DNA from: a virus
Virus genome (UHGV): UHGV-0035288
Strand: one strand, 5' to 3'
DNA: 44,443 nucleotides
This document shows, piece by piece, positions 11,010 to 40,793 of this stretch. The translations under genes and the position numbers were made by a program. Position 1 is the stretch's first letter; every line of letters begins with the position of its first letter. The notes under the pieces were generated by a model. That model worked only from the letters and a program-made list of their open reading frames with translations. It ran no database searches and had not been told where the DNA came from.

Positions 11010-11605
11010 CTTACGAATCCAATAGCAGTCTTAAGGGTGGCGGATACGGTTGCCGTTAGGTGTCCGTTGTCCGTGTACGACAAGCTCGAACGCTCGACCA
11101 CGAATAAACCTGTTTCGCCATCCGGCGCGGTGACGACAAACGGCTTGACGAAGTGCCCGCGAAGGAAGTTGTAAACCAGTTTAGGGTTGCACCACTTGTC
11201 CGTAGTCAGCCCGACGAATTGCACGGGGAACTGTTTCGTTTCGGCGTTCGGGCCGTCCGCGATGTTCTGTCCGTAGCCATTACCAAATTGCAATTCCTCG
11301 GACCGGAAAGCTAACTGCACGTCGCCACCGCCCTGCAATTGCATGTGCCAGTAATAGGGCCATTCGTTTGATCGCGGGTCGTGTGCTTCGATTAGCTCAT
11401 ATGCCGCACCGGATTTCGTCGGACCGGCCCAGTTATCTTTCAGTGTAATGACCGTGTTCGAGTTGAATGCTGCAATTTTGCCGGTGTAGTCGTTGCCGTC
11501 GATGCGGGTGAATACGCGTACCTTCCCGATCTCGCTAAGGAACGCCGTTCCCGCGCCCGTAACGGTCTTACTCCCCTTAGTTAAAGTGATTGTACCTTGT
11601 GACAT
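11006..11605 (-). CDS. minor tail protein (M position)
   Basis: 199 aa between tape measure and L-like gene; N-terminus MSQGTITLTKGSKTVTGAGTAF resembles the fiber N-terminal motif. Confidence 0.55.
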   Translation of the reverse strand: MSQGTITLTKGSKTVTGAGTAFLSEIGKVRVFTRIDGNDYTGKIAAFNSNTVITLKDNWAGPTKSGAAYELIEAHDPRSNEWPYYWHMQLQGGGDVQLAFRSEELQFGNGYGQNIADGPNAETKQFPVQFVGLTTDKWCNPKLVYNFLRGHFVKPFVVTAPDGETGLFVVERSSLSYTDNGHLTATVSATLKTAIGFVR

Positions 11606-11641: not shown

Positions 11642-14284
11642 TCATCGTTTGTAAAGTACACCACCCGGTTTCGTCGCCTTCACGATCTCGGCCTTCACCG
11701 CCTCGGTGATTTGCTTGCCGAACGCCTGCGCGGTACGGGGGTCTGGCCCGCTGACACTGGTATCCGTTTTACCCGCCCCCGTGTAAACGTTAGTCGTCAC
11801 GACCATACCACCGCCTGCGCCCGACGCGGCAACGCCCAATTTCCCGTCCGGCCCGCGCTTCAATGGCATGATGGCCTCGGGTCCGGCCTCCCCCATCAAT
11901 CCAGCGCCTTTAGCGAACGCCTGGACGCCATAACTGAAAAAGGTGGGCTGGCTTACCACTTTCCCCGAATAGGCCGCGAGATTGCCGCCTGTGTACGCTC
12001 CGCCGTCCGCATTCTTAGTGAGGCCAGAGAAGATAGCGCCGAACAATCCGTTTTTGCCGCCGTCGCCACCGAAAGCGCTAACGATGGACTTGAACGCCTG
12101 CGAGGTAGCCAGCTTGATTAGTTCGCTCAGGATGGATTTAACCATATCCTTTGCGTTCAGCTTGCCAGTCTCGAAAAACTCGTTCATCGTGTCTTGCATA
12201 GCGCTGAATGTGAATTTCGTGAGCGACGCCATCTGCGTATATCCGTTACCCATTTCATCCACGCTATCTTTAAGACCGCGGCTGAAGCCATCCCATAGCG
12301 AGGCGTTAGCGCCGGTCTGCGCCTCCTGCACTTCGCGCAACTTAGACACCGCCTTGTCGATATCGGTATCGCTAGCGCCAACCCGTTTCAGGCGATCAAT
12401 TAGCTGCAATTCTTCACGTAGGTTTGCCGCTTCGCGAGTGGAAAGCGCATACCCAGCGGCGGTGGCTTTTAGTTCGGCGTTCTGGTTCTTAACGAAGGCA
12501 TCGATCTGCGCGTGCGCCTTAACCTGCTTCTCTTTCGCGTCCAGCAATTTGGCTTCTTCGACGATCTGCTCGCGCACTTCCTTCACGCGTCCGAATTCGA
12601 CCATCTGCTGCTTTTCTGCTGCCGTTAGCGCTCTTTCTTTGCTCGCAGCGATTAACTGCTCATTGTCGGCGATCAGCTTGTTTAAGGCCGCTTGAGCGCG
12701 TTGCGTGCGGGTCTGCGTAGATGCGTTGGCTTCGATCTGCTTGCCGGATTCTCGAAGCTGGGCCAGTTCGCTCCGTGCGACTTCCAGCATTTTCATACCG
12801 GCATCCACGCGAACAGCCGCGGCCTTCTTCGGGGCGGGGTCTTTGTAGCGCTCGTTGACCTGCTTAACCGCCTCGGCTAGTTCTTTCTCATCAATAACGC
12901 CGCGCTTATTCAGCAAATTGAGGCGGGCGATCTCGTCGGCGCGCTTCTTAGCGTTGGTGGCGTATTCCTTCTCGAACGCGGCGCGGTCACGGGCAGTGCG
13001 GTTGGCCTCCTCGTTCGCCTTTGCGGATTCGTCTGCGGCGCGGGCGTTGTCTCGCTCCGCACGGTTACGCAGGGTGAGCGACGCCACCACTTTTTCCTGG
13101 GCGACCAGTTCGCTGTAAAGCATGTTAATACGTGCTTTCTGCGCTTCAGTCATTACCCCACCGGCAGCGTTTACCGCTTTCATCTCGGCATAATAAGCCG
13201 TGGTCATGCGCTGCAATGACTCACGCGCTTTCATCTCGGACTCATTGGAGGACTGCGCGCGGCCCACGTCCAGGATTGCATCCCACATAGATTTAGCTGC
13301 CGATGTGACGACGTTCATCGACCGCTCAAGCGTACCCATGTTGGACTTGATTTCATTGGTCATGCTGGTGAACGACGCAGCGGCTGTTTTGTTAGCCAAC
13401 GCAACTGCGTCTGTCTCACGACCCGCATCAACGAGCGACTGTACCTGCTGGATCTGCGCTTCGTTTACGACGTGATACTTATCCGCCAGCGCACGCAGTC
13501 CGCCAACGGGGTCGGTTGACAGCTTTGCCACAGCCGCTACCACATCCTCGATCGGCTGGCTGGACACCTTCGCGAAGTCATTCACTACCTTAGCCAATGC
13601 GCCGAAGTCACCACCCGCTTTCACACCTGCCGCCGCCAGCGCCTGGATTGTGTCACGCGTCTTGCGAAAGGACCCGCCCATGCGCTCGGCGTTCTCGGAC
13701 AGCACCAGGATCTGGTTAGCGGTGAGGCCGGAGATATTACCAGACAGCGCCAGCGTCTTGTTAAGCGCTGCCACCTGGTTCTCTGCTCGGGACGTAATTG
13801 CCACGCCCACGCCTAAAGTCGCCGTTACAGCGGTGAGGCCGATCCCTACGGGGCCGAGGAAGCCCGCAACATACCGAAGCGTGTTACCCAGTCCGCCAAA
13901 TGCGCCGGTTAGCTGTGGTAACTGCTGAAGCATGACGCGGTGCACCGGCATACCCATCTCAAGCGTAACCGCGATATCCTGTAACTGGAATGCGGCGTTA
14001 CGCGAGGCAAAGCCCAAGTTTTTTGTCGACATGCCTAATCGGCTGGCGAGTCGCTCCTGTTTCGTCATGCCGTCGGCGGCGCGCTGCGATTCAGTCGCTA
14101 ACTTTTCCATTCCGCCCGCGGCGTCGCCAGTAACCTTTTTCGACTTGCCGAGGGTGTCGTTTAATTTCTTTACTTTCTGTTCTGTGTTCTCGGATTTCTG
14201 CGCAAATGTGTCCAGCACAGTATTAGCCGTTTTAATTTGCGCGACGTCCGCCTTTAGCGTGATGCCCGCTGCCTGATCTGCCAT
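11642..14284 (-). CDS. tail tape measure protein
   Basis: 880-aa Ala/Lys/Glu-rich coiled-coil ORF with Gly-rich C-terminal region; ATG at 14284; lies between the GT position and the tip genes. Confidence 0.85.
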   Translation of the reverse strand: MADQAAGITLKADVAQIKTANTVLDTFAQKSENTEQKVKKLNDTLGKSKKVTGDAAGGMEKLATESQRAADGMTKQERLASRLGMSTKNLGFASRNAAFQLQDIAVTLEMGMPVHRVMLQQLPQLTGAFGGLGNTLRYVAGFLGPVGIGLTAVTATLGVGVAITSRAENQVAALNKTLALSGNISGLTANQILVLSENAERMGGSFRKTRDTIQALAAAGVKAGGDFGALAKVVNDFAKVSSQPIEDVVAAVAKLSTDPVGGLRALADKYHVVNEAQIQQVQSLVDAGRETDAVALANKTAAASFTSMTNEIKSNMGTLERSMNVVTSAAKSMWDAILDVGRAQSSNESEMKARESLQRMTTAYYAEMKAVNAAGGVMTEAQKARINMLYSELVAQEKVVASLTLRNRAERDNARAADESAKANEEANRTARDRAAFEKEYATNAKKRADEIARLNLLNKRGVIDEKELAEAVKQVNERYKDPAPKKAAAVRVDAGMKMLEVARSELAQLRESGKQIEANASTQTRTQRAQAALNKLIADNEQLIAASKERALTAAEKQQMVEFGRVKEVREQIVEEAKLLDAKEKQVKAHAQIDAFVKNQNAELKATAAGYALSTREAANLREELQLIDRLKRVGASDTDIDKAVSKLREVQEAQTGANASLWDGFSRGLKDSVDEMGNGYTQMASLTKFTFSAMQDTMNEFFETGKLNAKDMVKSILSELIKLATSQAFKSIVSAFGGDGGKNGLFGAIFSGLTKNADGGAYTGGNLAAYSGKVVSQPTFFSYGVQAFAKGAGLMGEAGPEAIMPLKRGPDGKLGVAASGAGGGMVVTTNVYTGAGKTDTSVSGPDPRTAQAFGKQITEAVKAEIVKATKPGGVLYKR

Positions 14285-14349
14285 TATGCAGTCCCCCTTT
14301 TTATGCAGTTGCCGTCGGTCATTGTATCAGCGAATTTAAAACAAACCTT

Positions 14350-14664
14350 ATTCAGTCTCAGACGAGGGGGGCCATTGACCCCCGTCTAGTCTGAAAGACT
14401 GGGGTGCTGTCCCGCTGTCCCGATCGGCTAAAACCCGCGGCAGCACTGGAGGGGACGGGGTGCTGTCCCGATCTGTCCCGCCTCATTCTGTCCCGCTTTT
14501 TGTCCCGCTTACTTTATGCACTAAAACTGCATAGACATTCACATTTTGGGGGTGGGACAGATCGGGACAGCACCCCTGTCCCGCTTTTAATCTATGCAAT
14601 GTAAGTGGGTAAATATGCAGTTTTAGAGGTGCGGGACAAAACGGGACGTCCCGCCTGTCCCGCT
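14350..14664. repeat. iteron-rich element, copy 1 (hairpin plus at least 13 GTCCCG-core repeats in both orientations)
   Basis: TGTCCCG(C/A) at 14408, 14416, 14464, 14474, 14489, 14501, 14577, 14656; GTCCCGC at 14648; inverted GGGACA/CGGGACA at 14554, 14563, 14632, 14642. Conserved hairpin CAGTCTCAGACGAGGGGGG...CCCCCGTCTAGTCTGAAAGACTGG at 14353-14402. About 70% of this block is repeated at 31188-31366. Confidence 0.8.
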
Positions 14665-14667
14665 TCG

Positions 14668-15344
14668 TTATGCGGGGTTCTGCCGCGCCATTTCATCCAG
14701 CGCAACGCGTTCCATTAGCTTGATATCTTTAAACGCACGTTGCGCGTTTTCGATGCCGTGCATCTTAAATAGCCATTCCAGTACGCCGTAGTCGATGCCG
14801 TATGCGCCGCCGAATCCGGTACGCCATTGCGTGGCGCAATCGGTGAAGACTGCGACTATCTTCGCATTGTCGGGCCATATCGCAACAGGCGGACAAACAT
14901 CTTCGGGGGCCGCACCCCATAAACTTGCGGCTAAATCTTCGGAGGGTGGCGGCGGGCCATAAAAGCGTCGCGCCGCCTCAATTAGTTTTTTTCACGCAGT
15001 CCCATCAGTTCGAGATAGTACGAAGTGTGGAACACGCCGAACGCGCGCGGATAGTTGACCACCAGGCGGCGGACGTTCTCCGCGTTAAATTCGTCCGGCA
15101 GATTCCAGCCTTCTGCGACGTGCATGATGGCCTCGACCATAACGTTAAAGCCTTCCGGGTCGTTGTCGTCGTATTCCGACAGCTTGCGCTCCGTGTCCTG
15201 CATGGTCTGCGAAAATTCGTCGATCGGACGGTGGCGCACGGTAAACGTCATTTTGCCCGGTTCGTTTTCGCCTGGGCGCGGGATCTCAATCGGCAGCTTA
15301 AAAGTAGGCTTAGGGTCAAGTGTAAAGAGTGGTGCTTTAGCCAT
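14668..15344 (-). CDS. tail assembly chaperone GT-like fusion made by programmed -1 ribosomal frameshift
   Basis: Slippery heptamer A_AAA_AAC (minus strand, 14991-14985) at the last codons of G; the -1 frame then stays open for 105 codons (LIEAARRFYGPPPPSEDL...DEMARQNPA) to TAA at 14668-14670. Confidence 0.6.
14982..15344 (-). CDS. tail assembly chaperone G-like
   Basis: Track ORF begins at TTG 15359; ATG at 15344 has GGAGA SD. 120 aa ending ...GLREKN; immediately downstream of major tail gene. Confidence 0.7.
   Translation of the reverse strand: MAKAPLFTLDPKPTFKLPIEIPRPGENEPGKMTFTVRHRPIDEFSQTMQDTERKLSEYDDNDPEGFNVMVEAIMHVAEGWNLPDEFNAENVRRLVVNYPRAFGVFHTSYYLELMGLREKN
14985..14991 (-). other. 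-1 frameshift slippery site A_AAA_AAC
   Basis: Plus strand GTTTTTT at 14985-14991, in frame X_XXY_YYZ relative to G. Confidence 0.6.
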
Positions 15345-24112: not shown

Positions 24113-25498
24113 TTAGTAGAAGTCTACGGTAGGAACAGCGGCGATTGGACGAATCACAGGGAACAGGTGCGCAATAGGGTATCCCGCTGCGTCATTCATG
24201 TGGTCCACTCCGGCAGTTTTATCCGGCTCGCCTTTCTTCAGGTCGTAAACCTGCTGTTCCAGACATTTCGCTAGTGTAGGGCATTTATCCAGGTTGACAA
24301 AATACTGGCGCACGCCCTTCGAGTTGCACATCATCGTATTCATCGCGATCAATCGGTCTTTCACAGGTGGGTTAACGCTGTCATATTCCACCTCGAAGCC
24401 AGCGTCTTCCAGTTGTGCGATATCGGACGACGACGCGTTGACCGTCTTGCGGGATTTGCCGCTGCTATCAGGGTAAACTACAACCTTACCGGCAGCGCAA
24501 TGATCGGGGTAGCGCTCCTCGATCGCTTCAATCATAGCCGGGGTATCAAACAGGTCCACGAATTCATCCACGGCGTGAATCTCGTCGCGGAACTCCTTGT
24601 TCTCGGCGGTGCGCTGCCGTCTTACATACACGACCGCCGCCATTTTCGTGACGTTAAAGTCCATACCGATAATCAGCGTGTCTTCCGGTTGTACTTCTTC
24701 GGTGCTGGCGTTCTCCTCGCGATTAAACATCTTGTACACCGCGCCCGACGTAAGGTTAACAAATAGGCCGTTCAGGTACGCGTCGATCAGGTTAGCCGGG
24801 TACTGACTGCGCAGCGTGTCGATAAAGTCTGCCGGTAAATGGTGGTTGTCGGTGGTCTTCGCCCGGATCAGGCGCTTTTGGCTATCCTTCTCCACCTCGA
24901 AAATTTGATACATTGCCCGGAAGCCTTCCGGCGTGGACACGATGACAAACTGACGGACCACGCCCGCACGCAGACGACCGAGCAATTTGTGATAAGCCGC
25001 CATTGCGACGTCTTGCTTCGTGGTGTCGAACTCGTCGGCAACAATCCACGCGGCGTTGACCCCGATCAGACGGGTATAGTTCTCCATTGATTCACAGATC
25101 ACGCGGGTCCATTTGCCTTTCACCAGAACGCTATAGATCTTGTCCTGCTTGTTGAACTTCCACCGGAAGCCAGCCTCGTCGAAAGCCTTCTCCAATTCTG
25201 GATACATGATTTTAACCAGGAGGGGAATAGTCGGTTCTGTAACGATGCCATCATGACCCGGGTTCAGGGTTAAAAGCTGGATTACCTTACGGGCCGCGAC
25301 CCATGACTTGCCGCCGCCGAAGCCGGAACACAGGCCGAGGATTTTAGTCTTCGTGTCCCGCAGTAGTTCGACCTGGTGCGGTAGGCAATCAGGCTGGTAA
25401 AGCCGCACCGCCTGCGCAACGCGTGTCGGGCGCGGTGGTCGGTTGCGCTTCGCGATCGCGCGTTCCAGTGCGCGGTGTTCTGCAGCATAGTTACGCAT
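24113..25498 (-). CDS. terL: terminase large subunit
   Basis: 461 aa; Walker A GLCSGFGGGKS and Walker B-like WIVADEFD; ATG overlaps terS stop. Confidence 0.85.
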   Translation of the reverse strand: MRNYAAEHRALERAIAKRNRPPRPTRVAQAVRLYQPDCLPHQVELLRDTKTKILGLCSGFGGGKSWVAARKVIQLLTLNPGHDGIVTEPTIPLLVKIMYPELEKAFDEAGFRWKFNKQDKIYSVLVKGKWTRVICESMENYTRLIGVNAAWIVADEFDTTKQDVAMAAYHKLLGRLRAGVVRQFVIVSTPEGFRAMYQIFEVEKDSQKRLIRAKTTDNHHLPADFIDTLRSQYPANLIDAYLNGLFVNLTSGAVYKMFNREENASTEEVQPEDTLIIGMDFNVTKMAAVVYVRRQRTAENKEFRDEIHAVDEFVDLFDTPAMIEAIEERYPDHCAAGKVVVYPDSSGKSRKTVNASSSDIAQLEDAGFEVEYDSVNPPVKDRLIAMNTMMCNSKGVRQYFVNLDKCPTLAKCLEQQVYDLKKGEPDKTAGVDHMNDAAGYPIAHLFPVIRPIAAVPTVDFY

Positions 25499-26049
25499 TA
25501 TTCGCCCTGGCCTTTGCCGGTAGGTTCGACAACGACGTCGCCGTTATCATCTTCGTCGTCATCCAGTGGGATATCGTCGCGTACTCCGTGGTTGGCTTTG
25601 AGCAGGAAGGTCGCGAAGCCCGCCGCGATAGTCACGCCGCCAGCTTCCATCAGGAAAGTTTTCTGCAATTCCATAGCGTCCGCCATAGCCTCGGCGAACT
25701 CCTCATGTGCGCGCGCCCAGCGGTACAGGCAGGCAACGCCCACACCGATTTCCGCGGCAAATCGGCCGAAGGTTGGCATTTTGTTACGAGGGATTACCTG
25801 CGCAGCGCCTTTATCGGAGTAATTGACCTGCCAGGCGTCGGCGTCGGCAAAATAGCGGCGAAGCTGGTCGCAGTAAACGGATCGGTAGTCAGTAGGGCGT
25901 CCACATTTGCCGCCTTTACGGCGCTTGCCGTACTCGATCTCAGGTCCGAGATTGGTATGCTCGGTTTGCTCGCCTGGTTTACGGCGCGGGGTTACTGCCA
26001 CTCGTCCGTCCAGTTTGGCGCGTCGGCCCTTAACTTTGATTTCTGCCAT
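25498..26049 (-). CDS. terS: terminase small subunit
   Basis: Start moved to ATG 26049 (MAEIKVKG...); 183 aa; basic N-terminus, acidic C-terminus; directly upstream of terL. Confidence 0.6.
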   Translation of the reverse strand: MAEIKVKGRRAKLDGRVAVTPRRKPGEQTEHTNLGPEIEYGKRRKGGKCGRPTDYRSVYCDQLRRYFADADAWQVNYSDKGAAQVIPRNKMPTFGRFAAEIGVGVACLYRWARAHEEFAEAMADAMELQKTFLMEAGGVTIAAGFATFLLKANHGVRDDIPLDDDEDDNGDVVVEPTGKGQGE

Positions 26050-26166
26050 GATATAAGCCCTTTTGTGCATATGCGCCGACCATCGGCAACATAGGAGACG
26101 GCCCTGCCATCTAATTGGGATTATAACAGGCACAAAAAAGCCCACCAAATCGGCAGGCTGGGAGGG

Positions 26167-30970: not shown

Positions 30971-30991
30971 CGTTCAGTCCTCATGTTGGTG

Positions 30992-31031
30992 TGCAACCAA
31001 TATAGCAGGGTGCTGGAGTGGGTGCAACCAA
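30992..31031 (-). promoter_or_regulatory. promoter region with two TTGGTTGCA motifs (minus orientation)
   Basis: TGCAACCAA on plus at 30992-31000 and 31023-31031; same leader (TTGGTTGCACACCAACA..GAGGAC) as upstream of 20281. Confidence 0.5.
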
Positions 31032-31182
31032 TATTAATCACGCGCATGAAAAAGTTGATCGCTATCTGCTGTAACTGCAAACTGCATTTTTCACCCACCA
31101 TTCTGCAACGCGCATTGGTTGCCTAGTTCATCGACGACCGCAATTCGCATCTTGTTGCCGTGCGTTATGCAATCCCGGATTT

Positions 31183-31370
31183 TATGCAGTCTCAGACGAG
31201 GGGGGTGCCAGACCCCCCGTCTAGTCTGAAAGACTGGGGTGCTGTCCCGCTGTCCCGCTCCTCGCCAGGCCGCGTCATCCGGGGCGGGACGGGGGTGCTG
31301 TCCCGCTTTGTCCCGCCCCTGGTCTGTCCCGCTTTTTGTCCCGCTTACTTTATGCAGTTTTATTGCATAA
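31183..31370. repeat. iteron-rich element, copy 2
   Basis: Same hairpin (31188-31237) and TGTCCCGC repeats (31243, 31251, 31299, 31309, 31325, 31337; inverted GCGGGAC at 31284) as 14353-14520; in 480-bp intergenic gap downstream of primase-helicase. Confidence 0.8.
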
Positions 31371-31450
31371 CTATGCATTATACTCACACTACACGGCAAC
31401 CAACACGACCGACTAAAAGCACGCAAAATGGCAACCAATGCGCGCAAAAT

Positions 31451-33715
31451 TTAATCTTTTAAATCGTCATCGGTCGCTAAAAGCGTGATAGGGATATCCG
31501 ATTTGATGACCAAATTAGACGACCCATAGATGGCCCCGGTGTGTGGATCGGTGTAAAAACCTATCACTCCTCGCTCCACCATATCGTCGATTGCCTTCGT
31601 CGAAGTGCCACCTTTTGCCAGCCCAGCCTGGCGGACAATTGCCGATTTACTGAATCCAGTATGGTCCGGGTTATCTTCCATCAGTTTTTCCAGTGCCGCA
31701 TAAAGCACTTTCTCTTTTTCGTTGCGCGGTCCGGCGGTGTTCTCTTCCTTAACCGCGGCCTTGCCTGCCGCCTTCGCCTGTTCAATAGCGAACGGTGCCA
31801 GGGCAACCGGTACGAGGTAGAGAGTCTCGTCGCGTGGCGTGGAGGCAATCGGCTTGACGTCCCAACCGGCAACCACGTCACCGAAGTCTGGCCCGGTGCT
31901 GGTGGACTGGTGCGCCTCGAACGCCTCAGATTTGCGGAGATCCACCTTCACCTTGCACTTGAGCAGGACGAAGCCGCGCGGCGCTTGCTTGATGCCGTTA
32001 CGTGACTTCTCATGATACAGGTTCAATTGTCCGGGCTGGTTGTCGTCCGGCTGTTCCAGGAAGAACGCAGAATCGACAGCACCATGCAGCGCGCCGGACC
32101 CGCGTGGCGTTCTGCTGCCGTTTGCACCTTTAGCCGGGTGGTGGATGACGCCCGCACTGCCACCTGTATTTTCCGCGATGGCCTTCAGCGCTTTGACCAC
32201 TTCACCCATATCGCTGGCGTTGTTCTCGTCGAACGGTTTAGCCTCGGCGGACCGCAACGCAACAGTCTGGTTGAGTGAGTCGAACGCCACCAGGCCAACC
32301 GGTTCGCCATTAGCGGTGCGGTTGATAAAGCTGATAACTTCGCGCAAGCCCGATTTGCTGGTGATATCCCAGCCGCGTGACTGCAGATCGATAATGTGCA
32401 GCTTGTCCAGGTCGTGCTCATATTTAATCTGCAATGCTTCTTTACGCTGGTTGGAGGCTTCGCCACCTTCCGCGTCGAAATAGAAGCAATGAGACTGGAC
32501 GACCTTCGCACCGCCAAACGGAATACCCGCGGCAACCGCGCCCATCTGGCCCAGCACGTAGAAAGACTTACCGATATTCGACTCACCCGCCATGTACCAG
32601 GTCGATTTAAAGTTAATCAACCCCTCGATAATCGGGTCGTGCTTACTGAACAGCGCAACCGGCTCGTTATCCAGATCCGCATCGGTGCACCCGCCATATT
32701 CTTCGCCGTCGCCAACCGCATCAACAATATGTTCATATAAGGATTCGACTTCCTCGTCGTCCAGCCCCGGAAGGATGGCGGCGATTTGCTTACGGGACAT
32801 ATTGTGTGGCTCGACGTTCAGGTGGTCCGGTATCCCGATGAGACGTAGCGCCAGGTGCTGGTGTCTATTTAGCTCCGAGCAACACTCGTTGCCGGTGTGC
32901 ATACACTTGAAACGGATCTCGCCATCCTTAACCATGATAGCCGTCGACCCTTCGCCGCTGTGCAGATGTTCGTTCGGGCACGGCACTTCATAGCCCCGCC
33001 CGGAAGATAACTCCTCGAATCCTGCCTGGAAGCACCAGTCCAGAATGCCGTCTGCCACTGCGTCGTCGCCCTGGGTCAGTTCGCGGCGAACTTCCTCCTT
33101 CTCCACGCCCAACTTATCCGCCAGGCGGAGCAGACGACGGACGCGGGCGCGCTTGCCATAGTGGCACTTAATAACAGACTGCTGGTGTGGCAGGTACATC
33201 AGGCGGTTCGTGTCTTTCGTGCAATCGTCGAAGTCCACATCTGACAGACCCAGTTGGTGTAATAGTGCATACTGGACGCGGCCCAGGTCTTCTGCCGGTA
33301 CAGGCTTGTCCGTGAGCACCAGGAAACGGGCGCAACGCGTGCCGCCTTTCAGCGGGTGGCGGTCGCCGGTTGTGGTGTGAAAGACGTGCTCCAGTCCCGC
33401 GTCGATGAACGCCTTACGGCAGCGGCGTAGGGTGCGGGTGTCGGTACGGTCTATATCGAAGAACAGGATCGAGCGGTCCACCGCACTGGTCTTACGACGC
33501 AATCCGTCACTGGTATATGCCACGATGCCGTCGGCCTTACGCTTGCGGCGCGCATACTCGGCTTTATCTTCCGTTTTGTTGATATGCACCGAGGAGATTT
33601 CTTTCGCATCATTGATAAATTCGAAAAACTCTTCGGTAGTCATCTGGAAGTTTTCCGCCCTGGCTTTTTCGCCTTTTTTAGCGGGTCTTGTTACAGCGAA
33701 TTTAATTAAGCTCAT
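31451..33715 (-). CDS. DNA primase-helicase (N-terminal primase-polymerase-like domain, C-terminal P-loop helicase)
   Basis: 754 aa; Walker A-like GESNIGKS in C-terminal half, acidic and Cys/His-containing N-terminal half; ATG 33715. Confidence 0.75.
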   Translation of the reverse strand: MSLIKFAVTRPAKKGEKARAENFQMTTEEFFEFINDAKEISSVHINKTEDKAEYARRKRKADGIVAYTSDGLRRKTSAVDRSILFFDIDRTDTRTLRRCRKAFIDAGLEHVFHTTTGDRHPLKGGTRCARFLVLTDKPVPAEDLGRVQYALLHQLGLSDVDFDDCTKDTNRLMYLPHQQSVIKCHYGKRARVRRLLRLADKLGVEKEEVRRELTQGDDAVADGILDWCFQAGFEELSSGRGYEVPCPNEHLHSGEGSTAIMVKDGEIRFKCMHTGNECCSELNRHQHLALRLIGIPDHLNVEPHNMSRKQIAAILPGLDDEEVESLYEHIVDAVGDGEEYGGCTDADLDNEPVALFSKHDPIIEGLINFKSTWYMAGESNIGKSFYVLGQMGAVAAGIPFGGAKVVQSHCFYFDAEGGEASNQRKEALQIKYEHDLDKLHIIDLQSRGWDITSKSGLREVISFINRTANGEPVGLVAFDSLNQTVALRSAEAKPFDENNASDMGEVVKALKAIAENTGGSAGVIHHPAKGANGSRTPRGSGALHGAVDSAFFLEQPDDNQPGQLNLYHEKSRNGIKQAPRGFVLLKCKVKVDLRKSEAFEAHQSTSTGPDFGDVVAGWDVKPIASTPRDETLYLVPVALAPFAIEQAKAAGKAAVKEENTAGPRNEKEKVLYAALEKLMEDNPDHTGFSKSAIVRQAGLAKGGTSTKAIDDMVERGVIGFYTDPHTGAIYGSSNLVIKSDIPITLLATDDDLKD

Positions 33716-33725
33716 TGCCGTGGCC

Positions 33726-34055
33726 TTACTTAGAAGTTTTATTATTGCGTACCCAGGAGCGCACTGTGCTCTGATTAATTCCGGTCAACTCGGCAATCAT
33801 CGCCCAGGATTTGCCCTCGGCGCGCAAACGGATAACCTGCTTTTTGTATTCTTCCATTTCTTCATTGTGCTTTTGCAGCTTGCTGGCTGCCGTACCGTTG
33901 AGCAATTCCAGCCTGGCGCGTAATTCTTTTTCTACACTGCGCAGGCGCTCTACCTCAAATAGCACCGCCCCAACGGCATCGGTATAAGCCCATGACCGGC
34001 TTGTTTCACTGCTAACAGTCTTCGTTAACATTTCGATTGCGTCGTCGATATTCAT
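33726..34055 (-). CDS. HTH DNA-binding regulator
   Basis: 109 aa; C-terminal helix-turn-helix (SWAMIAELTGINQSTVRSWV); GAGGG SD; first gene of leftward transcription from divergent control region. Confidence 0.55.
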   Translation of the reverse strand: MNIDDAIEMLTKTVSSETSRSWAYTDAVGAVLFEVERLRSVEKELRARLELLNGTAASKLQKHNEEMEEYKKQVIRLRAEGKSWAMIAELTGINQSTVRSWVRNNKTSK

Positions 34056-34231: not shown

Positions 34232-34260
34232 TTGACTCCCTTCTGCAACCAATCTAATAT
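34232..34260 (+). promoter_or_regulatory. strong sigma70-like early promoter (TTGACT-17-TAATAT)
   Basis: -35 TTGACT 34232-34237, 17-bp spacer containing GCAACCAAT, -10 TAATAT 34255-34260. Confidence 0.6.
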
Positions 34261-34458
34261 TCCCCTCGTCGACAGGATGCAGGACGCAAACTGGAGAGGG
34301 GCAACGCAGGGGCCGGATCGAAGTGTCGGGATTCCCAACCGTGATGATATAACCCGGTCCACTACCCGAACGGGAGAACGCGCAACCGGGCAATATGTTA
34401 AGGCCACCGACGAAGTTAACTGCCGACACCTAAACTTAACCAATCGGAGATATAAAAC

Positions 34459-34974
34459 ATGTTTGAACAAATCGTAAACCTGATTACTCGCGGCGTAGTA
34501 GCACTGGAAACCATCGCTAAGCATTATGAAACCGTTGGCGCTGCCGTTGGTAAGCAGGAAGACAAGAAGCCGTCTAAGGTGAAAAAAGAAGTCGTAGAAG
34601 ATGACGACGATGAAACCGAAGACGAAAAACCGGCGAAAACCAAAAAATCCACAGCGAAAGGCAAGGCCAAAAAAGAAGTCGTAGAAGATGACGACGATGA
34701 AGCCGAAGACGAAAAACCAGCGAAGGGTAAAAAAGCTCCGGCGAAAGGCAAAGGCAAGAAAGATGCCGATCCGCTGGCGGAGATGCGCGACGAAATCAAA
34801 CAATATGCCGCTATTATCGCTGGTGGTGACGACGACGACGCGAACGACGAATTTGACGACCTGCTGGAATCGTTCGAGATCAAATCAATCGCCAAGCTGG
34901 AAGATGAAGACGTCGAAGACTTCCACAAAGATCTTAAAGAAATCGTCGAAACTTATTTCGAACTGGAAGATTAA
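34459..34974 (+). CDS. highly acidic tandem-repeat protein (first early gene)
   Basis: GGAGA SD then ATG 34459; 171 aa; duplicated block KEVVEDDDDE(T/A)EDEKPAK (DNA repeat at about 34584-34634 and 34668-34718); strongly acidic overall. Confidence 0.6.
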   Translation: MFEQIVNLITRGVVALETIAKHYETVGAAVGKQEDKKPSKVKKEVVEDDDDETEDEKPAKTKKSTAKGKAKKEVVEDDDDEAEDEKPAKGKKAPAKGKGKKDADPLAEMRDEIKQYAAIIAGGDDDDANDEFDDLLESFEIKSIAKLEDEDVEDFHKDLKEIVETYFELED

Positions 34975-34981
34975 TATTATC

Positions 34982-35009
34982 CGGCCCGCTAATCTGCGGG
35001 CCTCTTTTT
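34982..35009 (+). terminator. rho-independent terminator
   Basis: GGCCCGC-TAATCT-GCGGGCC hairpin followed by TCTTTTT. Confidence 0.6.
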
Positions 35010-35022
35010 AGAGGACGAGACA

Positions 35023-35274
35023 ATGGCACGATTCACGCTAATCGAGGCGGTGGATTCCCGCGACCAGCGCCCGTACTATTGGCTATTCGAACGCATCGGC
35101 AGCTTTCAGTCACGAGTTGCCGTAATAGATAAACGCCGTAACACCCCCGCGCAAATTAAGCGCACCACCTTTACTAACCCCGACTTTTATATTTGGGCGG
35201 ACTCCAATCTGGAATATGTTCGCTTCGCCGTTGCGTCCGAAGCAAAAACAATTGACCGCTGGGAGACAAAATAA
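35023..35274 (+). CDS. hypothetical protein
   Basis: GAGGA SD then ATG 35023; 83 aa. Confidence 0.5.
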   Translation: MARFTLIEAVDSRDQRPYYWLFERIGSFQSRVAVIDKRRNTPAQIKRTTFTNPDFYIWADSNLEYVRFAVASEAKTIDRWETK

Positions 35275-35463
35275 ATGGCTATATTCTTTGTTTTATTTCG
35301 TTGCCGTATTACCGGCGATGAGCAACCGGAAATCGTTATGAATCAGAACTGGAATTGCTGCTGGACTCAAGCCAGAGGTTTGGCGGCTACCATGAACGAA
35401 GCCGCGAAGCGGGCTGGGGTTAAACATGAATATTACATTGCTCAGTTTTCAAGGGTGGAATAA
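35275..35463 (+). CDS. hypothetical small protein
   Basis: 62 aa; ATG directly after upstream stop; Cys/Trp-rich; weak. Confidence 0.35.
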   Translation: MAIFFVLFRCRITGDEQPEIVMNQNWNCCWTQARGLAATMNEAAKRAGVKHEYYIAQFSRVE

Positions 35464-36893
35464 TGGCAATTAAACCAAAACGTAAAACGCAATCCGGTAG
35501 CAATACGGAACACTCATTACTTGGGCCATCCGGTGCTAAAAAGTGGATGGGTTGCCCTGCTGCCCTGGTGGTGGAAAAAGATATCCCGAACGAATCCGGG
35601 CAAGCCGCGATTAACGGTACGAGTATGCACACCGTATCTGAAGTGGTGCTAAACCGCATTATCGCCGGGGAGAAGCTGATAACCGCGAAGACGTATAAAG
35701 GGTGCTACGTCGAGAACGAAGGCAAGGGGCCGGTAAAGGCACACCCGAAAGCACCGAAAGGCGGCGTACTGGTCAACGACGACATGGTGAAACAGTGCGA
35801 CGCGTACATCGACCACTGGCGACCGCTCCTCGAAGTGGCGGAGTTTGTTCAGCTTGAGATGCGCGCCGATCTGACCCGCGTCCTTCACTCAGGCTACGAG
35901 ATCGACGGCAACAGGATTAAAACGTTCGGTACTGCCGATATGGTCATGGTCATGAAAAAGACCGATGGGACGTACATGCTGATTGTTGGCGACCTGAAGA
36001 CCGGGCGGCATAAGGTCGAGGCGAAAGAGAACAAACAGCTTATGTTGTACGCGCTCGGCCTGCTGCGCAAGCTGCAAACTATGTACGACATTACGACCGT
36101 GCGCCTGGTTATCTTCCAGCCGTATTGCGGTGGGGCGTCGGAGTGGGATATTTCGGTAGAAGCTCTGGAGATATTCGCGAAGTTTGCATCCAAGCGCGCT
36201 ATTGCCGCACTGGAGGCGTATTCCCGAGGCAAGAAGGGGCTTACCCGTGCCGACTTCCGCCCCAGCGTTGATGCGTGCCAGTGGTGCCGATTTGCGGATC
36301 AGTGTAGTGCCCGCGCTAAGGCCGCAATCGACACGATGACACCCCCAACGGCAACCGACGAAGACCTGGGCGACGACGTGAGTATTGCGACAGAGGAAGA
36401 ATGCGCCAACCATGACCGCAATATGGCCCGCGAAGCCAGGAAGGCGGCACGACGTGCGAAGCGCGGTAAGAAAGAAGCGGCCCCCGGTGCTATGAGCGCG
36501 GCGGAACTGCGCAAGGCTTATGAAGGCCTGGACGCAATGCGCCAGCACATCAAGGCTATCGAGTCCGCGGTATTCAAGGCGGTCATGGCGGGCGAAGGCG
36601 AATCGCTGGGCCTTAAGATGGTTGCCGGTAAGGAAGGGATCCGTAAGTGGGCGGACGAGAGCGAAGTGATTGAAATCTTCACGAAGGCCCGGATCAAGCG
36701 CGATGTGATGTACAAAGAAACATTGCTCAGCCCGACAGATGCCGAGAAGGTATTGAAGGACGAAAAACCAAAAGTGTGGGCGAAGCTGTGTGATAAAATC
36801 ACGCGCGCACCTGCCAAACCGGTGTTAGCTCCAATCGACGACCCGCGCCCTGCGTGGTCGGAAGCTACTGACGAGGACTTAAGCAATGAATAA
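35463..36893 (+). CDS. PD-(D/E)XK-type nuclease (DUF2800-like, Cas4/RecB-like)
   Basis: 476 aa; N-terminus HSLLGPSGAKKWMGCPA is the characteristic start of this family; C-terminal Cys cluster (CQWCRFADQC); TAATG coupling to upstream gene. Confidence 0.65.
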   Translation: MAIKPKRKTQSGSNTEHSLLGPSGAKKWMGCPAALVVEKDIPNESGQAAINGTSMHTVSEVVLNRIIAGEKLITAKTYKGCYVENEGKGPVKAHPKAPKGGVLVNDDMVKQCDAYIDHWRPLLEVAEFVQLEMRADLTRVLHSGYEIDGNRIKTFGTADMVMVMKKTDGTYMLIVGDLKTGRHKVEAKENKQLMLYALGLLRKLQTMYDITTVRLVIFQPYCGGASEWDISVEALEIFAKFASKRAIAALEAYSRGKKGLTRADFRPSVDACQWCRFADQCSARAKAAIDTMTPPTATDEDLGDDVSIATEEECANHDRNMAREARKAARRAKRGKKEAAPGAMSAAELRKAYEGLDAMRQHIKAIESAVFKAVMAGEGESLGLKMVAGKEGIRKWADESEVIEIFTKARIKRDVMYKETLLSPTDAEKVLKDEKPKVWAKLCDKITRAPAKPVLAPIDDPRPAWSEATDEDLSNE

Positions 36894-37218: not shown

Positions 37219-37998
37219 ATGGCTAAAGTCAACCTGAAAAATGTGCGTGTATGTTTCCTTAAAATTTGGGAACGTGATACCCCTAAACAGGATGGACAAA
37301 AACCGGCATACCGCGCCGTGATTCTTCTTGATAAAGAAGATCCGCAGGTGGACAAAGTGGAAGCGGCAGCGCGCGCAGTGCTCACCGACAAGCTGAAATC
37401 CGAGAAGAATGCCGATAAGTGGATGGACCGCCACTACGCCCAGGATTCTAAGGAATGCGCAGTCCGCGACGGTGACGAGCGCGACGAAGTAACCGAAGAA
37501 TTCGAAGGCATGTTGTACATCAACGCTAAATCGTTCAAACAGCCGAACATCCAAACGTCACTGGGCGAGAAGCAGACCGAGCAAGGTCTGACCGTAGAAG
37601 GCGACGAGATCGAAGGCCAGGAAATCTATTCCGGTTGTTATTGCAACGTGTCACTGGATATTTGGGCGTGGAACAACACCAACGGTAAGGGACTCGGTGC
37701 TGGTCTTTTGGGTCTGCGATTCCGCGTCGACGGCGAAGCCTTCGGCGGTGGCGGGTCTTCTTGCTCGGACGAGGACCTGGGCGACGATGACGAAGATGAA
37801 AGCCCGCGCAAGTCCAAAAAGTCAAAACGTCGTGATGACGATGATGAAGACGACAAGCCGCGCAAGTCCAAAAAGTCCAAGCGCCGCGATGACGACGACG
37901 ATGATGAAACACCTCGCAAACGTCGTAAGCCACGCGATGACGAAGATGAGGACGACGACGACGAAGACAAAGCACCGCGTAAACGTCGCCGCCGTTAA
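37219..37998 (+). CDS. single-stranded DNA-binding protein (DUF2815-like) with Lys/Arg-Asp/Glu repeat tail
   Basis: Track start is GTG 37198; ATG 37219 has GAGGA SD. N-terminus MAKVNLKNVRV typical of this SSB family; C-terminal 90 aa are alternating basic/acidic repeats (PRKSKKSKRRDDDDEDD x2, ending KRRRR). Confidence 0.6.
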   Translation: MAKVNLKNVRVCFLKIWERDTPKQDGQKPAYRAVILLDKEDPQVDKVEAAARAVLTDKLKSEKNADKWMDRHYAQDSKECAVRDGDERDEVTEEFEGMLYINAKSFKQPNIQTSLGEKQTEQGLTVEGDEIEGQEIYSGCYCNVSLDIWAWNNTNGKGLGAGLLGLRFRVDGEAFGGGGSSCSDEDLGDDDEDESPRKSKKSKRRDDDDEDDKPRKSKKSKRRDDDDDDETPRKRRKPRDDEDEDDDDEDKAPRKRRRR

Positions 37999-38227: not shown

Positions 38228-40515
38228 AAGACTTCGAACGCCTTTTTCTCGATACCGAGACATTTAGCGGGGTGGACCTGAAGAAAGTGGGCGCATACGC
38301 CTACGCAGAACACCCAACAACCGAGATTATGATTTGCACGTACGCCATAGACGAGGGCCGCGTGCAGACATGGGATTGCACCGAGTCCCCAACAATGCCG
38401 CGTGAACTGCGCAAGGCGCTCCGCCAGGTATCCCGCAAGAAAGCAAAAATAGTGATGGCTAACGGCCTCCTGTTTGACCGCCTGGTTATTCGCGAGAAGT
38501 GGGGCATTGACCTGCCGGTAGGCCAGATCGAGGATACCATGATTATGGCCTTTCGCCACGCGCTGCCGGGTAGCCTCGATATGCAGTGCCAGGTGTTGGG
38601 CGTCGACGCAGAGCACGCGAAGGATAAGGCGGGCAAGGCGCTGATCAAACGATTCTGTAAGCCAACCCCCAAGACCTACAAAATCCGCCGCTACACGCGC
38701 GAGACGCACCCCGAGGAGTGGGCTAAATTCCTGCGCTATGCCGCACTGGATATTATAGCGATGAGGGAAGTCTATTGGCGCATACCGGACTGGGGTAACA
38801 CGCCGAAGGAAGATGAAATCCTGCTTATTGACCAGTTGATCAACGACCGCGGCTTCTATGTGGACGTTGACCTGGCGAACGCCGCGATCAAAGCGGTGCA
38901 GGCGCATAAGGAAGAATTGAAGGAAGAAGCATGGGAGCGCTTCGGCGGTAAGCTGACAGGCAATGACTTCCTGCCAGCGCTGCGCGACCTGGCGCCTGCG
39001 TTCACAATCCACAACGCGCAGAAATCCACGCTTAACGACCTGCTGGAAGACCCGGACTTCCCCGACGAGGGCAAAGTGCTTATCGAGATGCGCCTCGGTG
39101 CGTCATCAACGGCATCGACTAAGTACAATCCGCTCGTTAATGGCTTATCCGCAGATGGTCGCCGTCGTGGGTGTCTCCAGTATGGCGGGGCGAAACGCAC
39201 GCTACGCTGGGCGGGCAAAGGCTTCCAGCCGCAAAACCTGGCACGCGGCGAGTATAGCGACGACCACGAAGGGAAGATTAAGCGCCGTGAAGGCGAGAGC
39301 GACGTTTCTTTTTGGGTCCGGTCGCACATGCTCACCAACGGCATCAACTCCCTGTTACGCGGGACAGCGCACTGGGCGTATGACATATCGAAGTTAACGG
39401 CCTCGACCGTTCGCGGGTGCATTATCCCGGCTAAGGGCAAGAAGTTTGTTGTAGCTGACTATTCTAACGTGGAAGGTCGCGGGCTTGCCTGGATCGCTGG
39501 TGAGAAAACCGCGCTAATGGTGTTTAGGGCGGGTCGCGATATCTATTGTGAAACTGCCGGTAAGATGTTTGGCCTCGACCCGGAATACATCAAAGCCAAC
39601 CGCAAAGACTTACGCCAGATTGGTAAGGCGTGCGAATTGGGGCTGGGTTATGGTGGCGGCGTTGCGGCGTTCCTGCAGTTTGCTAAAAACCTGGGCCTCG
39701 ACCTGTATGCGATGGCGGACGTCATGAAGGGCACATTCCCCGATCATATTTGGGCAGCGGCGAAACGGGGCTATGAATACGCCCGCATTAACGAAGCTAA
39801 GCGCCCGCCGAAGCCTGGCAAGAAAGACGAGCGCCCAACTTACATACTGCCGAAAAACGTGTGGTTGACGTGTGACGCGATCAAACGTATGTGGCGTGAG
39901 GCCCACCCGAAGACGGTAGCCTTTTGGGCAGAGCTTGAGGACGCGGTGTTGTGCGCAATCCGCAATCCGGGCAAAGCATACTGGGCTGGCGCGAACGTTC
40001 GCCCGGATGGTAAGAAAGCGCTCAAGATAGTCCGCACGAAGGCGAAGCATGACCCAACCTTCGACGAGGAGCGCGACGACCCGAACGCCGCAGGGTGGTG
40101 GTTGAAAATTGAGTTGCCGTCAGGGCGCATCATGAGCTATCCGGGCATTGCGCTGTCTGTCACTACCGAGATCGACGAAGATACCGGCAAGAAACGCACC
40201 AGCACCCGCATCAAATACCAGGGCGAGAATCAGACGACGCGCCAGTGGGGCTTCCAGTATACCTACGGCGGCAAACTGACGGAAAACATCGTGCAGGCGC
40301 TGTGTCGCGATATCCTCGCGTGGTCCATGCCTGGCGTTGAAGCCGCGGGGTATGAAATAGTCTTATCAGTGCACGATGAATTGATCACCGAAGTTCCGGA
40401 TACTGACGACTACACTACCGAGGAATTGTGCTCGCTGATGTGTGACCTGCCGATTTGGGCGAAAGGCTTCCCGCTTGCTGCGGAAGGCGACATTATGTAC
40501 AGGTACAGGAAATAA
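38224..40515 (+). CDS. DNA polymerase, family A, with N-terminal 3'-5' exonuclease domain
   Basis: 763 aa; GAGGA SD; Exo I motif FLDTETFSG near N-terminus; polymerase motif C SVHDELITEV near C-terminus. Confidence 0.9.
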   Translation: MKDFERLFLDTETFSGVDLKKVGAYAYAEHPTTEIMICTYAIDEGRVQTWDCTESPTMPRELRKALRQVSRKKAKIVMANGLLFDRLVIREKWGIDLPVGQIEDTMIMAFRHALPGSLDMQCQVLGVDAEHAKDKAGKALIKRFCKPTPKTYKIRRYTRETHPEEWAKFLRYAALDIIAMREVYWRIPDWGNTPKEDEILLIDQLINDRGFYVDVDLANAAIKAVQAHKEELKEEAWERFGGKLTGNDFLPALRDLAPAFTIHNAQKSTLNDLLEDPDFPDEGKVLIEMRLGASSTASTKYNPLVNGLSADGRRRGCLQYGGAKRTLRWAGKGFQPQNLARGEYSDDHEGKIKRREGESDVSFWVRSHMLTNGINSLLRGTAHWAYDISKLTASTVRGCIIPAKGKKFVVADYSNVEGRGLAWIAGEKTALMVFRAGRDIYCETAGKMFGLDPEYIKANRKDLRQIGKACELGLGYGGGVAAFLQFAKNLGLDLYAMADVMKGTFPDHIWAAAKRGYEYARINEAKRPPKPGKKDERPTYILPKNVWLTCDAIKRMWREAHPKTVAFWAELEDAVLCAIRNPGKAYWAGANVRPDGKKALKIVRTKAKHDPTFDEERDDPNAAGWWLKIELPSGRIMSYPGIALSVTTEIDEDTGKKRTSTRIKYQGENQTTRQWGFQYTYGGKLTENIVQALCRDILAWSMPGVEAAGYEIVLSVHDELITEVPDTDDYTTEELCSLMCDLPIWAKGFPLAAEGDIMYRYRK

Positions 40516-40793
40516 TGACACCAGAAGGCAAGATTCAAAGTCACCTGATGCGACGGGTGAAAGAGGTAGGCGGATTCTGCCGCAAAATGGCATGGGAGGG
40601 GCGCGCGGGTGCGCCCGATCTGATTATCATCATCAACGGCAAAATAGTGTTCGTCGAAGTGAAGCGCCCGGGCGGAAAACCGAAGCCACACCAGGTACGC
40701 GAGCATGAGCGGATGGCCCGCCGCGGTGCGGACGTTCGCGTCATAGACAACATCGCCTACTGTGATTTATTGGTTGCTGAATTGGTCGCATAG
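40515..40793 (+). CDS. VRR-NUC domain nuclease
   Basis: ATG 40515 overlaps polymerase stop (TAATG), AGGA SD; 92 aa; PD-(D/E)XK core PDLIIIINGKIVFVEVKRPGGKP...QVREHERM. Confidence 0.65.
   Translation: MTPEGKIQSHLMRRVKEVGGFCRKMAWEGRAGAPDLIIIINGKIVFVEVKRPGGKPKPHQVREHERMARRGADVRVIDNIAYCDLLVAELVA

Follow-up and report, generated by a model that had tools for sequence, protein, structure and literature searches.

The element analysed here is an array of short repeats with a hairpin, termed copy B, which lies just past the primase-helicase gene of UHGV virus genome UHGV-0035288 (a stretch of 44,443 nucleotides, referred to below as the window) and which has a counterpart, copy A, elsewhere in the same genome. 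Among the closest described systems are those of satellite phage P4, RSF1010 and pRN1. The P4 alpha protein binds octamer iterons (TGTTCACC) in two clusters, the origin (ori) and the cis replication region (crr). These are ~4.5 kb apart, crr adjoins the alpha gene, and both are required in cis. The oriV of RSF1010 contains iterons, G+C-rich and A+T-rich segments and the hairpin single-strand initiation signals ssiA and ssiB. In P4 alpha the primase, the helicase and a C-terminal winged-helix DNA-binding domain are joined in one polypeptide, the helicase belonging to superfamily 3 and the primase being of the DnaG type (PMC2777425). The pRN1 protein ORF904 combines a primase-polymerase (prim-pol), a superfamily 3 helicase and a winged helix and works without iterons (PMC2777425), and the pRN1 origin consists of 232 bp directly 3' of orf904 and contains a stem-loop (PMC3869888).

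The window shares with P4 two separated clusters, one of them beside the putative initiator gene. The C-terminal domain of its primase-helicase is predicted to be of the winged-helix fold class, with no sequence similarity to P4 alpha found; the unit sequence differs and the separation in the window is 16.8 kb. The original prediction had drawn this parallel, which stands for the arrangement of the clusters, whereas membership of the P4 family fails because the helicase core is of the RecA-fold AAA_25 type and not superfamily 3; as an analogy, P4 may serve as a reasonable working model. As in pRN1, the array lies directly 3' of a replication gene, but pRN1 has a superfamily 3 helicase, no iterons and a single origin. 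Unlike RSF1010, which splits its functions among RepA, RepB' and RepC and has 20-bp iterons read by RepC, the window seems to place all functions in one protein, and its units are 7–8 bp long.

Copy B is best read as a replication cis-element, namely an iteron-type origin or initiator-binding site, since comparative evidence links such arrays to this helicase family and since the primase-helicase has a predicted winged-helix C-terminus. With moderate confidence we consider it to be the array to which the primase-helicase of this phage binds and, probably, its origin of replication. The element is most likely of a known, iteron-type kind, only the distant second copy A being unusual.

The window represents a nearly complete genome of a Dhillonvirus, an E. 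coli siphophage of the HK578/SO-1 type, with 92–94% identity over 24 kb to UAE_MI-01 and UHP65, among others. The bare observation of the pair is not new: the record of Sodalis phage SO-1 (NC_013600) annotates the same two elements at the same positions as repeat 'region A' (11214-11597) and 'region B' (40178-40657), and notes direct, inverted and palindromic repeats, the similarity to region A and a 'possible' function. What is new here is the link of such arrays to a helicase family. Literature searches found no paper on a Dhillonvirus origin or on SO-1 regions A and B, on TGTCCCG/CGGGAC iterons, or on an origin of Rhizobium phage 16-3.

Organisation of copy B

The features of copy B and its immediate surroundings are as follows.

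30971-31450, gap B: 480 bp between the primase-helicase stop codon and the first small leftward gene (start 30970)
31182-31370, copy B core: TTATGCA, hairpin, six direct and one inverted TGTCCCG unit, 21-bp palindrome
31187-31236, hairpin as read from the sequence: outer stem CAGTCT/AGACTG, inner stem AGACGAGGGGGG/CCCCCCGTCT, loop TGCCAGA
31243-31343, plus strand, direct TGTCCCG(C) units starting at 31243, 31251, 31299, 31309, 31325 and 31337
31284-31290, inverted unit GCGGGAC, within 31281-31319, where a 10-bp inverted repeat GGGGCGGGAC/GTCCCGCCCC surrounds the third unit
31350-31370, A+T-rich 21-bp palindrome TTATGCAGTTTTATTGCATAA at the right end of copy B
31451-33715, minus strand, primase-helicase gene: 754 amino acids (aa), Pfam AAA_25 (E 2.5e-19), annotated in relatives as replicative helicase-primase

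The location originally described, a 480-bp gap past the primase-helicase stop and upstream of leftward small genes, was confirmed, and the proposal of an iteron-plus-hairpin element is supported. The direct units are spaced by 8, 48, 10, 16 and 12 nt, and all seven units (six direct, one inverted) fall within 101 bp, which is the make-up of an iteron cluster, i.e., at least three short direct repeats, often with inverted ones. The unit nearest the gene lies 108 bp past the primase-helicase stop codon, and the array is antisense to the gene. The window contains 22 TGTCCCG words where 6.4 +/- 2.4 would be expected; 16 occurrences are inside gap B and the gap that holds copy A (six in copy B, ten in gap A), and the six outside the gaps are at chance level. 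The inverted repeat GGGGCGGGAC/GTCCCGCCCC is kept in the B copies of relatives. The 30-bp windows richest in A+T reach 77% in gap B (31345-31374), where the window takes in the 21-bp palindrome, and 73% in gap A (14587-14616), the gaps being 47% A+T overall. A DnaA-dependent origin was considered and rejected, as TTATNCACA-like boxes are not enriched (29 with at most one mismatch against 25.7 expected, one of them in or near each copy).

In L066, L067, L064, L102, L125 and L027 the palindrome TTATGCAGTTTTATTGCATAA is reversed to its exact reverse complement TTATGCAATAAAACTGCATAA, a difference that amounts to a 7-bp centre flipped between inverted arms.

Association of the arrays with AAA_25 helicase genes

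A statistical link between TGTCCCG arrays and the AAA_25 helicase family emerged when IMG/VR was scanned for clusters of three or more TGTCCCG units close together, in which 106 non-Dhillonvirus loci were found among the matches listed; 213 control loci comprised 93 unrelated loci and 120 listed loci with arrays of a permuted heptamer. Many of the listed array loci share a layout in which direct runs are accompanied by inverted units, a small G+C hairpin and a stretch rich in A+T. By tblastn, 33 of the 106 encode a homologue of the helicase core of the window protein (residues ~350-590), and with a profile of the C-terminal domain shared by those proteins, an AAA_25 (RepA-like) helicase or its C-terminal domain was found in 38. 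In all 38 the array lies 0–290 bp past the 3' end of the helicase gene or overlaps it, and never upstream, a pattern into which copy B, antisense and 108 bp past the stop, fits exactly. Such a protein was encoded in none of the 93 unrelated and none of the 120 permuted-heptamer loci (Fisher p = 6e-11 for 33/106 vs 0/93; p = 4e-15 for 38/106 vs 0/120).

Roughly three in four of these 33 loci carry the array only antisense to the gene, the rest being sense or mixed, and arrays in either orientation are what would be expected of a double-stranded DNA site and not of an RNA element. No other protein of the window was recurrently associated with the array loci. The raw abundance of TGTCCCG arrays was discarded as evidence, since the permuted heptamer also gave at least 120 loci, mostly perfect tandem or coding repeats; because these controls lack the gene association, only that association was used. 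A conserved small helix-turn-helix (HTH) partner upstream of the family helicases was likewise rejected, the upstream neighbours being heterogeneous. No second, distant array was found in the other array-bearing contigs among the matches listed.

Similar layouts with other unit words were found beside related genes. The array-linked helicases share a C-terminal motif, WR..FY..[DE]T[KR][KR][KR]AF.RA...L...G.I....W. In Rhizobium phage 16-3, ~400 bp of GCGTGACA/TGTCACGC units (a TGTCACG word) lie directly past the homologous gene (p101); the unit is one base off GCGGGACA, and at the end of the array stands a G+C hairpin bordered by inverted units. In Roseobacter phage CRP-823 a hairpin is surrounded by TTGTAGT/ACTACAA units, also directly past the homologous gene, and in Caulobacter phage RW, which encodes this kind of protein, no such array was found. 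Both 16-3 p101 and CRP-823, together with the 38 listed IMG/VR contigs, resemble the window in having an AAA_25 helicase with or without Prim-Pol, followed immediately by 7–8-bp units in direct and inverted order with a small G+C hairpin, and in the 38 contigs the heptamer is TGTCCCG itself; the proteins of this group, however, carry the WR..FY..KKKAF.RA motif, which the window protein lacks at the sequence level.

Among closer relatives of the window protein, L234 (68% identical) keeps GCGGGACA and the same hairpin, whereas in St162 (44% identical) this place is taken by six GGGGAGA units with a TTATGCAG motif, the sole such cluster in its genome, and in L235 (46% identical) by GCTGCCAAC/GTTGGCAGC boxes together with GGGGATC..GATCCCT hairpins. 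Arrays that stay linked to the gene while their word differs between lineages are the signature of an initiator and its iterons evolving together. In phage K1H (L124), a 2.1-kb stretch without an annotated gene lies beside the primase-helicase (34646-36759) and contains three perfect 24-bp tandem repeats (35712-35785); it may be an equivalent cis region.

The primase-helicase and the candidate reader of the units

Pfam assigns only AAA_25 to the primase-helicase. Its domains were examined in an AlphaFold2 model built on 35 homologues. The N-terminal domain (residues 1-205) is well folded (predicted local distance difference test, pLDDT, ~90), and is followed by a segment of invariant cysteines and histidines (C246, H252, C271, H273 and C279). 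The helicase core has a RecA fold, for which the best-fitting replicative helicase in Foldseek is RSF1010 RepA (1g8y, template modelling score 0.68 on target), with RAD51/RecA-family recombinases ranking above it by E-value. The C-terminal domain and the gene upstream, which are the two candidates for reading the units, are located as follows.

31496-31735, minus strand, C-terminal winged-helix-like domain of the primase-helicase (residues ~661-740): three helices and a beta-hairpin, pLDDT 74-90
33726-34055, minus strand, HTH protein of 109 aa directly upstream of the primase-helicase gene: Pfam HTH_23, Sigma70_r4_2 and HTH_28

Modelled alone, the C-terminal domain reaches a pLDDT of 76 and a predicted template modelling score of 0.65. 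Its top PDB matches in Foldseek are all winged-helix proteins (MarR, IclR, Rio2, histone H1, ArsR and LexA; E 0.1-0.8, probability up to 0.99), and at the level of fold class the model shows a winged helix, which makes this domain a candidate iteron reader. As modelled, the protein would be laid out as a self-contained initiator, with an N-terminal domain, a RepA-like RecA-fold helicase and a C-terminal winged helix, in parallel to P4 alpha and pRN1 ORF904 (PMC2777425) except for the helicase superfamily. In sequence searches the C-terminal fragment alone gave two trivial matches, and a search of PDB sequences with the family profile returned only RepA (E 0.1) and a spurious BurrH match, with no similarity to P4 alpha. 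Homology of the C-terminal domain to the KKKAF domain of the array-linked helicases was tried and dropped, being non-significant by phmmer, hmmsearch and hhalign; hmmsearch with the KKKAF-domain profile gave no match in the window's C-terminal region, the best whole-protein hit (E 0.23) falling at residues 35-60.

A homologue of the 109-aa HTH protein is encoded in L234, which has TGTCCCG units, while St162 and L235, which have other repeats, encode an HTH_3 protein instead. Where TGTCCCG is the unit, in Dhillonvirus and in the L234 type, the presumed recognition helix begins with T-[ST]-T-x-A-I; its start differs in St162 and L235.

Copy A and the history of the pair

Copy A lies in the tail operon, in a gap with the following features.

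11642-14284, leftward, tape-measure gene, with its start codon at 14284
14285 to ~14672, gap A, between the tail chaperone G/GT and the tape-measure gene; the T extension of the chaperone ends near 14672 and sets the true left edge of the gap
14348-14534, copy A core, with the hairpin at 14353-14401 and an imperfect palindrome at 14514-14534
14408, 14416, 14464, 14474, 14489 and 14501, TGTCCCG units of copy A, spaced by 8, 48, 10, 15 and 12 nt
14549-14665, extra unit cluster present in gap A only: two blocks, each of two inverted units and one direct unit, including CGGGACGTCCCG

The two copies match in three co-linear direct-repeat blocks (14348-14383/31182-31217, 14379-14482/31214-31317 and 14487-14533/31323-31369) with 82–89% identity and an offset of 16834–16836 bp. 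In a MAFFT alignment 158 of 203 columns are identical, or 153 of 188 (~81%) in the core, with two 1-nt gaps. The order shared in the window's orientation is TTATGCA (TTATTCA in A), the hairpin, two units 8 nt apart, a spacer, four units and the palindrome TTATGCA-N7-TGCATA(A). Identical in both are the hairpin stems (the inner stem reading AGACGAGGGGGG/CCCCC(C)GTCT across the copies), the six TGTCCCG units and the arms of the right-hand TTATGCA...TGCATA palindrome; the hairpin loop and a central spacer of ~34 nt are copy-specific. The duplication that the original prediction saw between 31188-31366 and 14353-14520 is thus real, although its wording, 'nearly base for base', slightly overstates an identity of ~81% with a different loop and spacer. 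Copy B had also been called the second copy, whereas the comparative sequence data suggest that B holds the ancestral gene-linked position and that A is an extra, lineage-specific second site.

A 7-bp terminal inverted repeat, TTATGCA...TGCATAA, delimits the duplicated core on either side, and more TTATGCA words stand immediately beyond it; the word may mark a duplication boundary formed by microhomology or may be a further binding word. TTATGCA(G) sites are found at 14284-14310, 14348, 14514, 31165, 31182, 31350 and 31364, and also in the arrays of St162 and L234.

The original prediction had been made to depend on the similarity being present in related genomes, and both copies are retained across the genus and in a sister lineage. 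A copy B query was covered to at least 80% in 157 of 159 GenBank relatives, with two to three matching places in nearly all records listed, and two exact hairpin copies were found in 14 of 16 IMG/VR Dhillonvirus contigs. In the sister lineage (primase-helicase ~68% and chaperone G ~62% identical), copy B is present in L234 and L236 and copy A in L363 and L364; since L236 and L364 share a 1711-bp overlap that is 100% identical, they represent one genome carrying both copies. The sister-lineage copy A has a compensatory change from A-T to G-C in the hairpin stem (AGACG..CGTCT to GGACG..CGTCC). The occupation of fixed positions in ~160 genomes and the sister lineage, at never more than two sites and despite the risk that direct repeats 16.8 kb apart delete essential genes, argues for selection. 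Between copy A and the extension of the chaperone, L363 (10674-11422) and L364 (10674-11054) have an insertion of one or two small genes on the reverse strand, with ATTGGTTGC boxes alongside, which makes gap A a site of gene gain.

Invariant columns number 118 of 188 in copy B (18 relatives), 126 of 186 in copy A (16 genomes) and 122 of 210 in an alignment of both cores (14 genomes with two copies each, 28 sequences); the extra cluster of gap A is less conserved (63 of 139). The hairpin stem is near-invariant and its loop variable (29 distinct variants). Orthologous copies are ~90% and paralogous copies ~79–80% identical. Fixed differences between A and B occupy eight columns, and 31 columns have the same polymorphisms in both, including the loop variants CCATTGA, TGCCAGA and CCGCTGA and a first-pair spacing of 8 vs 9 nt. 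Strong concerted evolution was considered and dropped, the effect being marginal (A–B identity of 0.798 within a genome vs 0.788 between genomes, permutation p = 0.04). The shared polymorphisms and the marginal within-genome excess indicate old paralogues with occasional exchange and not actively homogenised copies.

Proposed function

In the model that we infer, which covers DNA binding, the identity of the binder, origin firing and cooperation between A and B, the C-terminal winged helix of the primase-helicase would read the TGTCCCG(C) units on double-stranded DNA and several protomers would assemble on the seven units of copy B, six direct and one inverted; the RecA-fold helicase ring would open or load at the adjacent A+T-rich palindrome. 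The G+C hairpin with its conserved stem would be extruded and may offer the N-terminal domain a single-strand signal for priming. Copy A would be the same kind of array, an old duplication into the gap between the chaperone G/GT and tape-measure genes that has been kept since, and its role could be that of a second origin, or else of a helper or handcuffing site that acts on copy B from afar.

A P4-like ori/crr pairing of the copies is possible by analogy. A more far-reaching, rather doubtful version is a two-site system, of a kind not described for RecA-fold primase-helicases, in which oligomers at B and A pair across the 16.8 kb, in the manner of P4 ori/crr or by handcuffing, and in which the loop, or firing of A, gates the tape-measure and tail-tip block with its own invariant putative promoter just downstream of A, coupling replication to late morphogenesis; more broadly, the module of helicase, C-terminal reader and 3' iterons with lineage-specific 7–8-bp words would be an undescribed and widespread class of phage origin.

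Several observations weigh against copy B as an origin read by the primase-helicase. The A+T-rich stretches of both gaps are short and no 13-mer-like repeats were seen in them, and the position of the two copies, each upstream of a leftward promoter-like sequence, would also suit a role in transcription. Conservation of the core does not exceed that of its flanks and neighbouring genes (mean pairwise identity 0.87-0.89 vs 0.86-0.94), and in a tight genus conservation alone is therefore weak evidence. The helicase linkage holds in only 38 of the 106 listed loci, the remainder including coding tandem repeats and unknown contexts. On the side of the protein, the winged-helix matches are generic with weak E-values, and P4 alpha (1KA8) is outside the top 50; hhalign detects no homology between the C-terminal domain and the KKKAF domain (E 0.05, probability 1%, the helices being in the same order only), although TGTCCCG is the unit of both groups. 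The upstream 109-aa HTH protein, which changes type at the same lineage boundary as the presumed recognition helix, is an equally open candidate reader.

Alternative explanations

The genome setting on which the alternatives draw is one of divergent transcription from ~34.1-34.4 kb, with a leftward gene string of ~32 kb running from 34055 down to 2402 and a rightward replication block that wraps round the window ends. The leftward order is the 109-aa HTH protein, the 754-aa primase-helicase, gap B, the small genes, those for lysis, terminase, head and tail, the chaperone G gene plus its frameshift extension, gap A and the tape-measure gene. Further features are as follows.

14321-14329, minus strand, extended -10-like TGATACAAT between the copy A hairpin and the tape-measure start, in a ATTGTATCAG block invariant in 16 genomes; a putative promoter element
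25498-26148, terminase small-subunit gene
31027-31022 and 31004-30999, gap B, weak leftward promoter-like site read by eye: TTGCAC, 17-nt spacer, TATATT; hexamers conserved, spacer variable
30993, 31024, 31115 (minus strand), 31396 and 31431, GCAACCAA boxes in gap B, outside the duplicated core

The arrays might be operators or upstream activating sites of a phage regulator that split the leftward transcription unit into timed blocks, with the replication genes before B, a middle block of small, lysis, head and tail genes, and the tape measure and tail tip after A. Both copies do stand at gaps in one 32-kb leftward gene string, each with a leftward promoter-like sequence 80–340 bp downstream, and gap B is packed with a regulatory-looking GCAACCAA box while an HTH protein is encoded beside the primase-helicase. 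We nevertheless regard this explanation, the main rival, as unlikely: in the 38 unrelated listed loci the arrays track the helicase 3' end in either orientation and whatever gene lies downstream, no TGTCCCG cluster occurs at this genome's other promoters, including the early divergent region at 34.1-34.4 kb, and a consensus sigma-70 scan gave no promoter in either gap. Moreover, a helicase with its own winged helix is a known pattern of origin-binding initiators (PMC2777425). A terminator scan of both gaps found only the iteron inverted repeats, on the non-transcribed strand. The leftward transcript could also contain the elements as functional RNA, used in processing, stabilisation or anti-termination like the two put sites of phage HK022. 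Their common orientation relative to transcription would fit, as would the strong folding of the transcribed strand of copy B (-94.2 kcal/mol, z = -4.9 vs shuffled) and the hairpin's conserved stem, variable loop and one compensatory change. The opposite strand, however, also folds strongly (z = -3.1), as any DNA rich in inverted repeats would, no Rfam 15 family matches at gathering score anywhere in the window, and neither hairpin is followed by a T-run. Direct and inverted 7–8-bp words are the layout of protein-binding double-stranded DNA, and homologous arrays elsewhere stand in both orientations relative to the gene, which leaves an RNA function very improbable.

The least probable of the explanations is that the pair are packaging (pac) or terminase sites, recombination hot spots or functionless remnants of a small mobile cassette. 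The 7-bp terminal inverted repeat TTATGCA...TGCATAA that bounds the core, the additional TTATGCA words outside it and the exchange of sequence between copies (31 columns with shared polymorphisms) would be in keeping with such readings. Two of these ideas, terminase recognition and recombination hot spots, had been offered as alternatives in the original prediction and gained no support: the small-terminase gene is 5 kb from copy B and 11 kb from copy A, and arrays elsewhere accompany helicase and not terminase genes, while within-genome homogenisation is weak, identity barely exceeding that between genomes (0.798 vs 0.788, p = 0.04). The retention of both copies at fixed positions in ~160 genomes and the sister lineage also argues for selection.

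Significance

Dhillonvirus is a genus common among E. coli phages, represented in the BASEL collection and used in therapy studies, and no origin of the genus was found described in the literature searched. If copy B is the origin and TGTCCCGC its word, a defined cis element would become available for phage engineering, for minimal replicons and for interpreting defence systems by which replication proteins are sensed. More widely, the pattern in which an array of a lineage-specific word and a hairpin comes after an AAA_25 primase-helicase gene could allow origins to be predicted from sequence in many uncultured phages. The conserved copy A in the tail operon is the one odd feature, and bears on the possibility of a P4-like two-site origin in a virulent siphophage.

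Other features of the genome

The GCAACCAA(T) box (reverse complement ATTGGTTGC) occurs 18 times genome-wide against 2.2 expected, nearly always in intergenic DNA and often in pairs. A rightward promoter close to consensus (TTGACT-17-TAATAT, 34233-34261) has one such box inside its spacer, and the word is probably a promoter-associated operator or an element overlapping the -35 hexamer. The sites other than those in gap B are as follows.

1191/1203, 20236/20250, 37139/37155 and 43712/43729, paired GCAACCAA boxes
34245, GCAACCAA box
4141, 9604, 30439 and 40770, single GCAACCAA boxes

Analogous GTTGGCTGC/GTTGGCAGC boxes are present in St162 and L235. In about half of the Dhillonviruses examined (carriers L125, L067, L066, L058, L127, L102, L091 and L064), a GGCAACCAATGCGCGCAAAATTTAATC box at a position equivalent to window ~31430 is tandem-duplicated, with a perfect palindrome GATATGGGAATTCCCATATC between the two; the window does not have this duplication.

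GC skew only mirrors the direction of transcription and turns at ~34 kb. At the end of the tail chaperone gene (~14975-14992, minus strand), a seven-A run (GAAAAAAAC), invariant in 16 genomes, is the expected slippery site for the G/GT frameshift, as judged from its sequence. In-frame tandem repeats of 87 nt (34576-34749) and 54 nt (37783-37890), encoding acidic, lysine-rich stretches, are found in two early rightward genes, namely 34459-34974 and the gene for a Gp2.5-like protein that binds single-stranded DNA.

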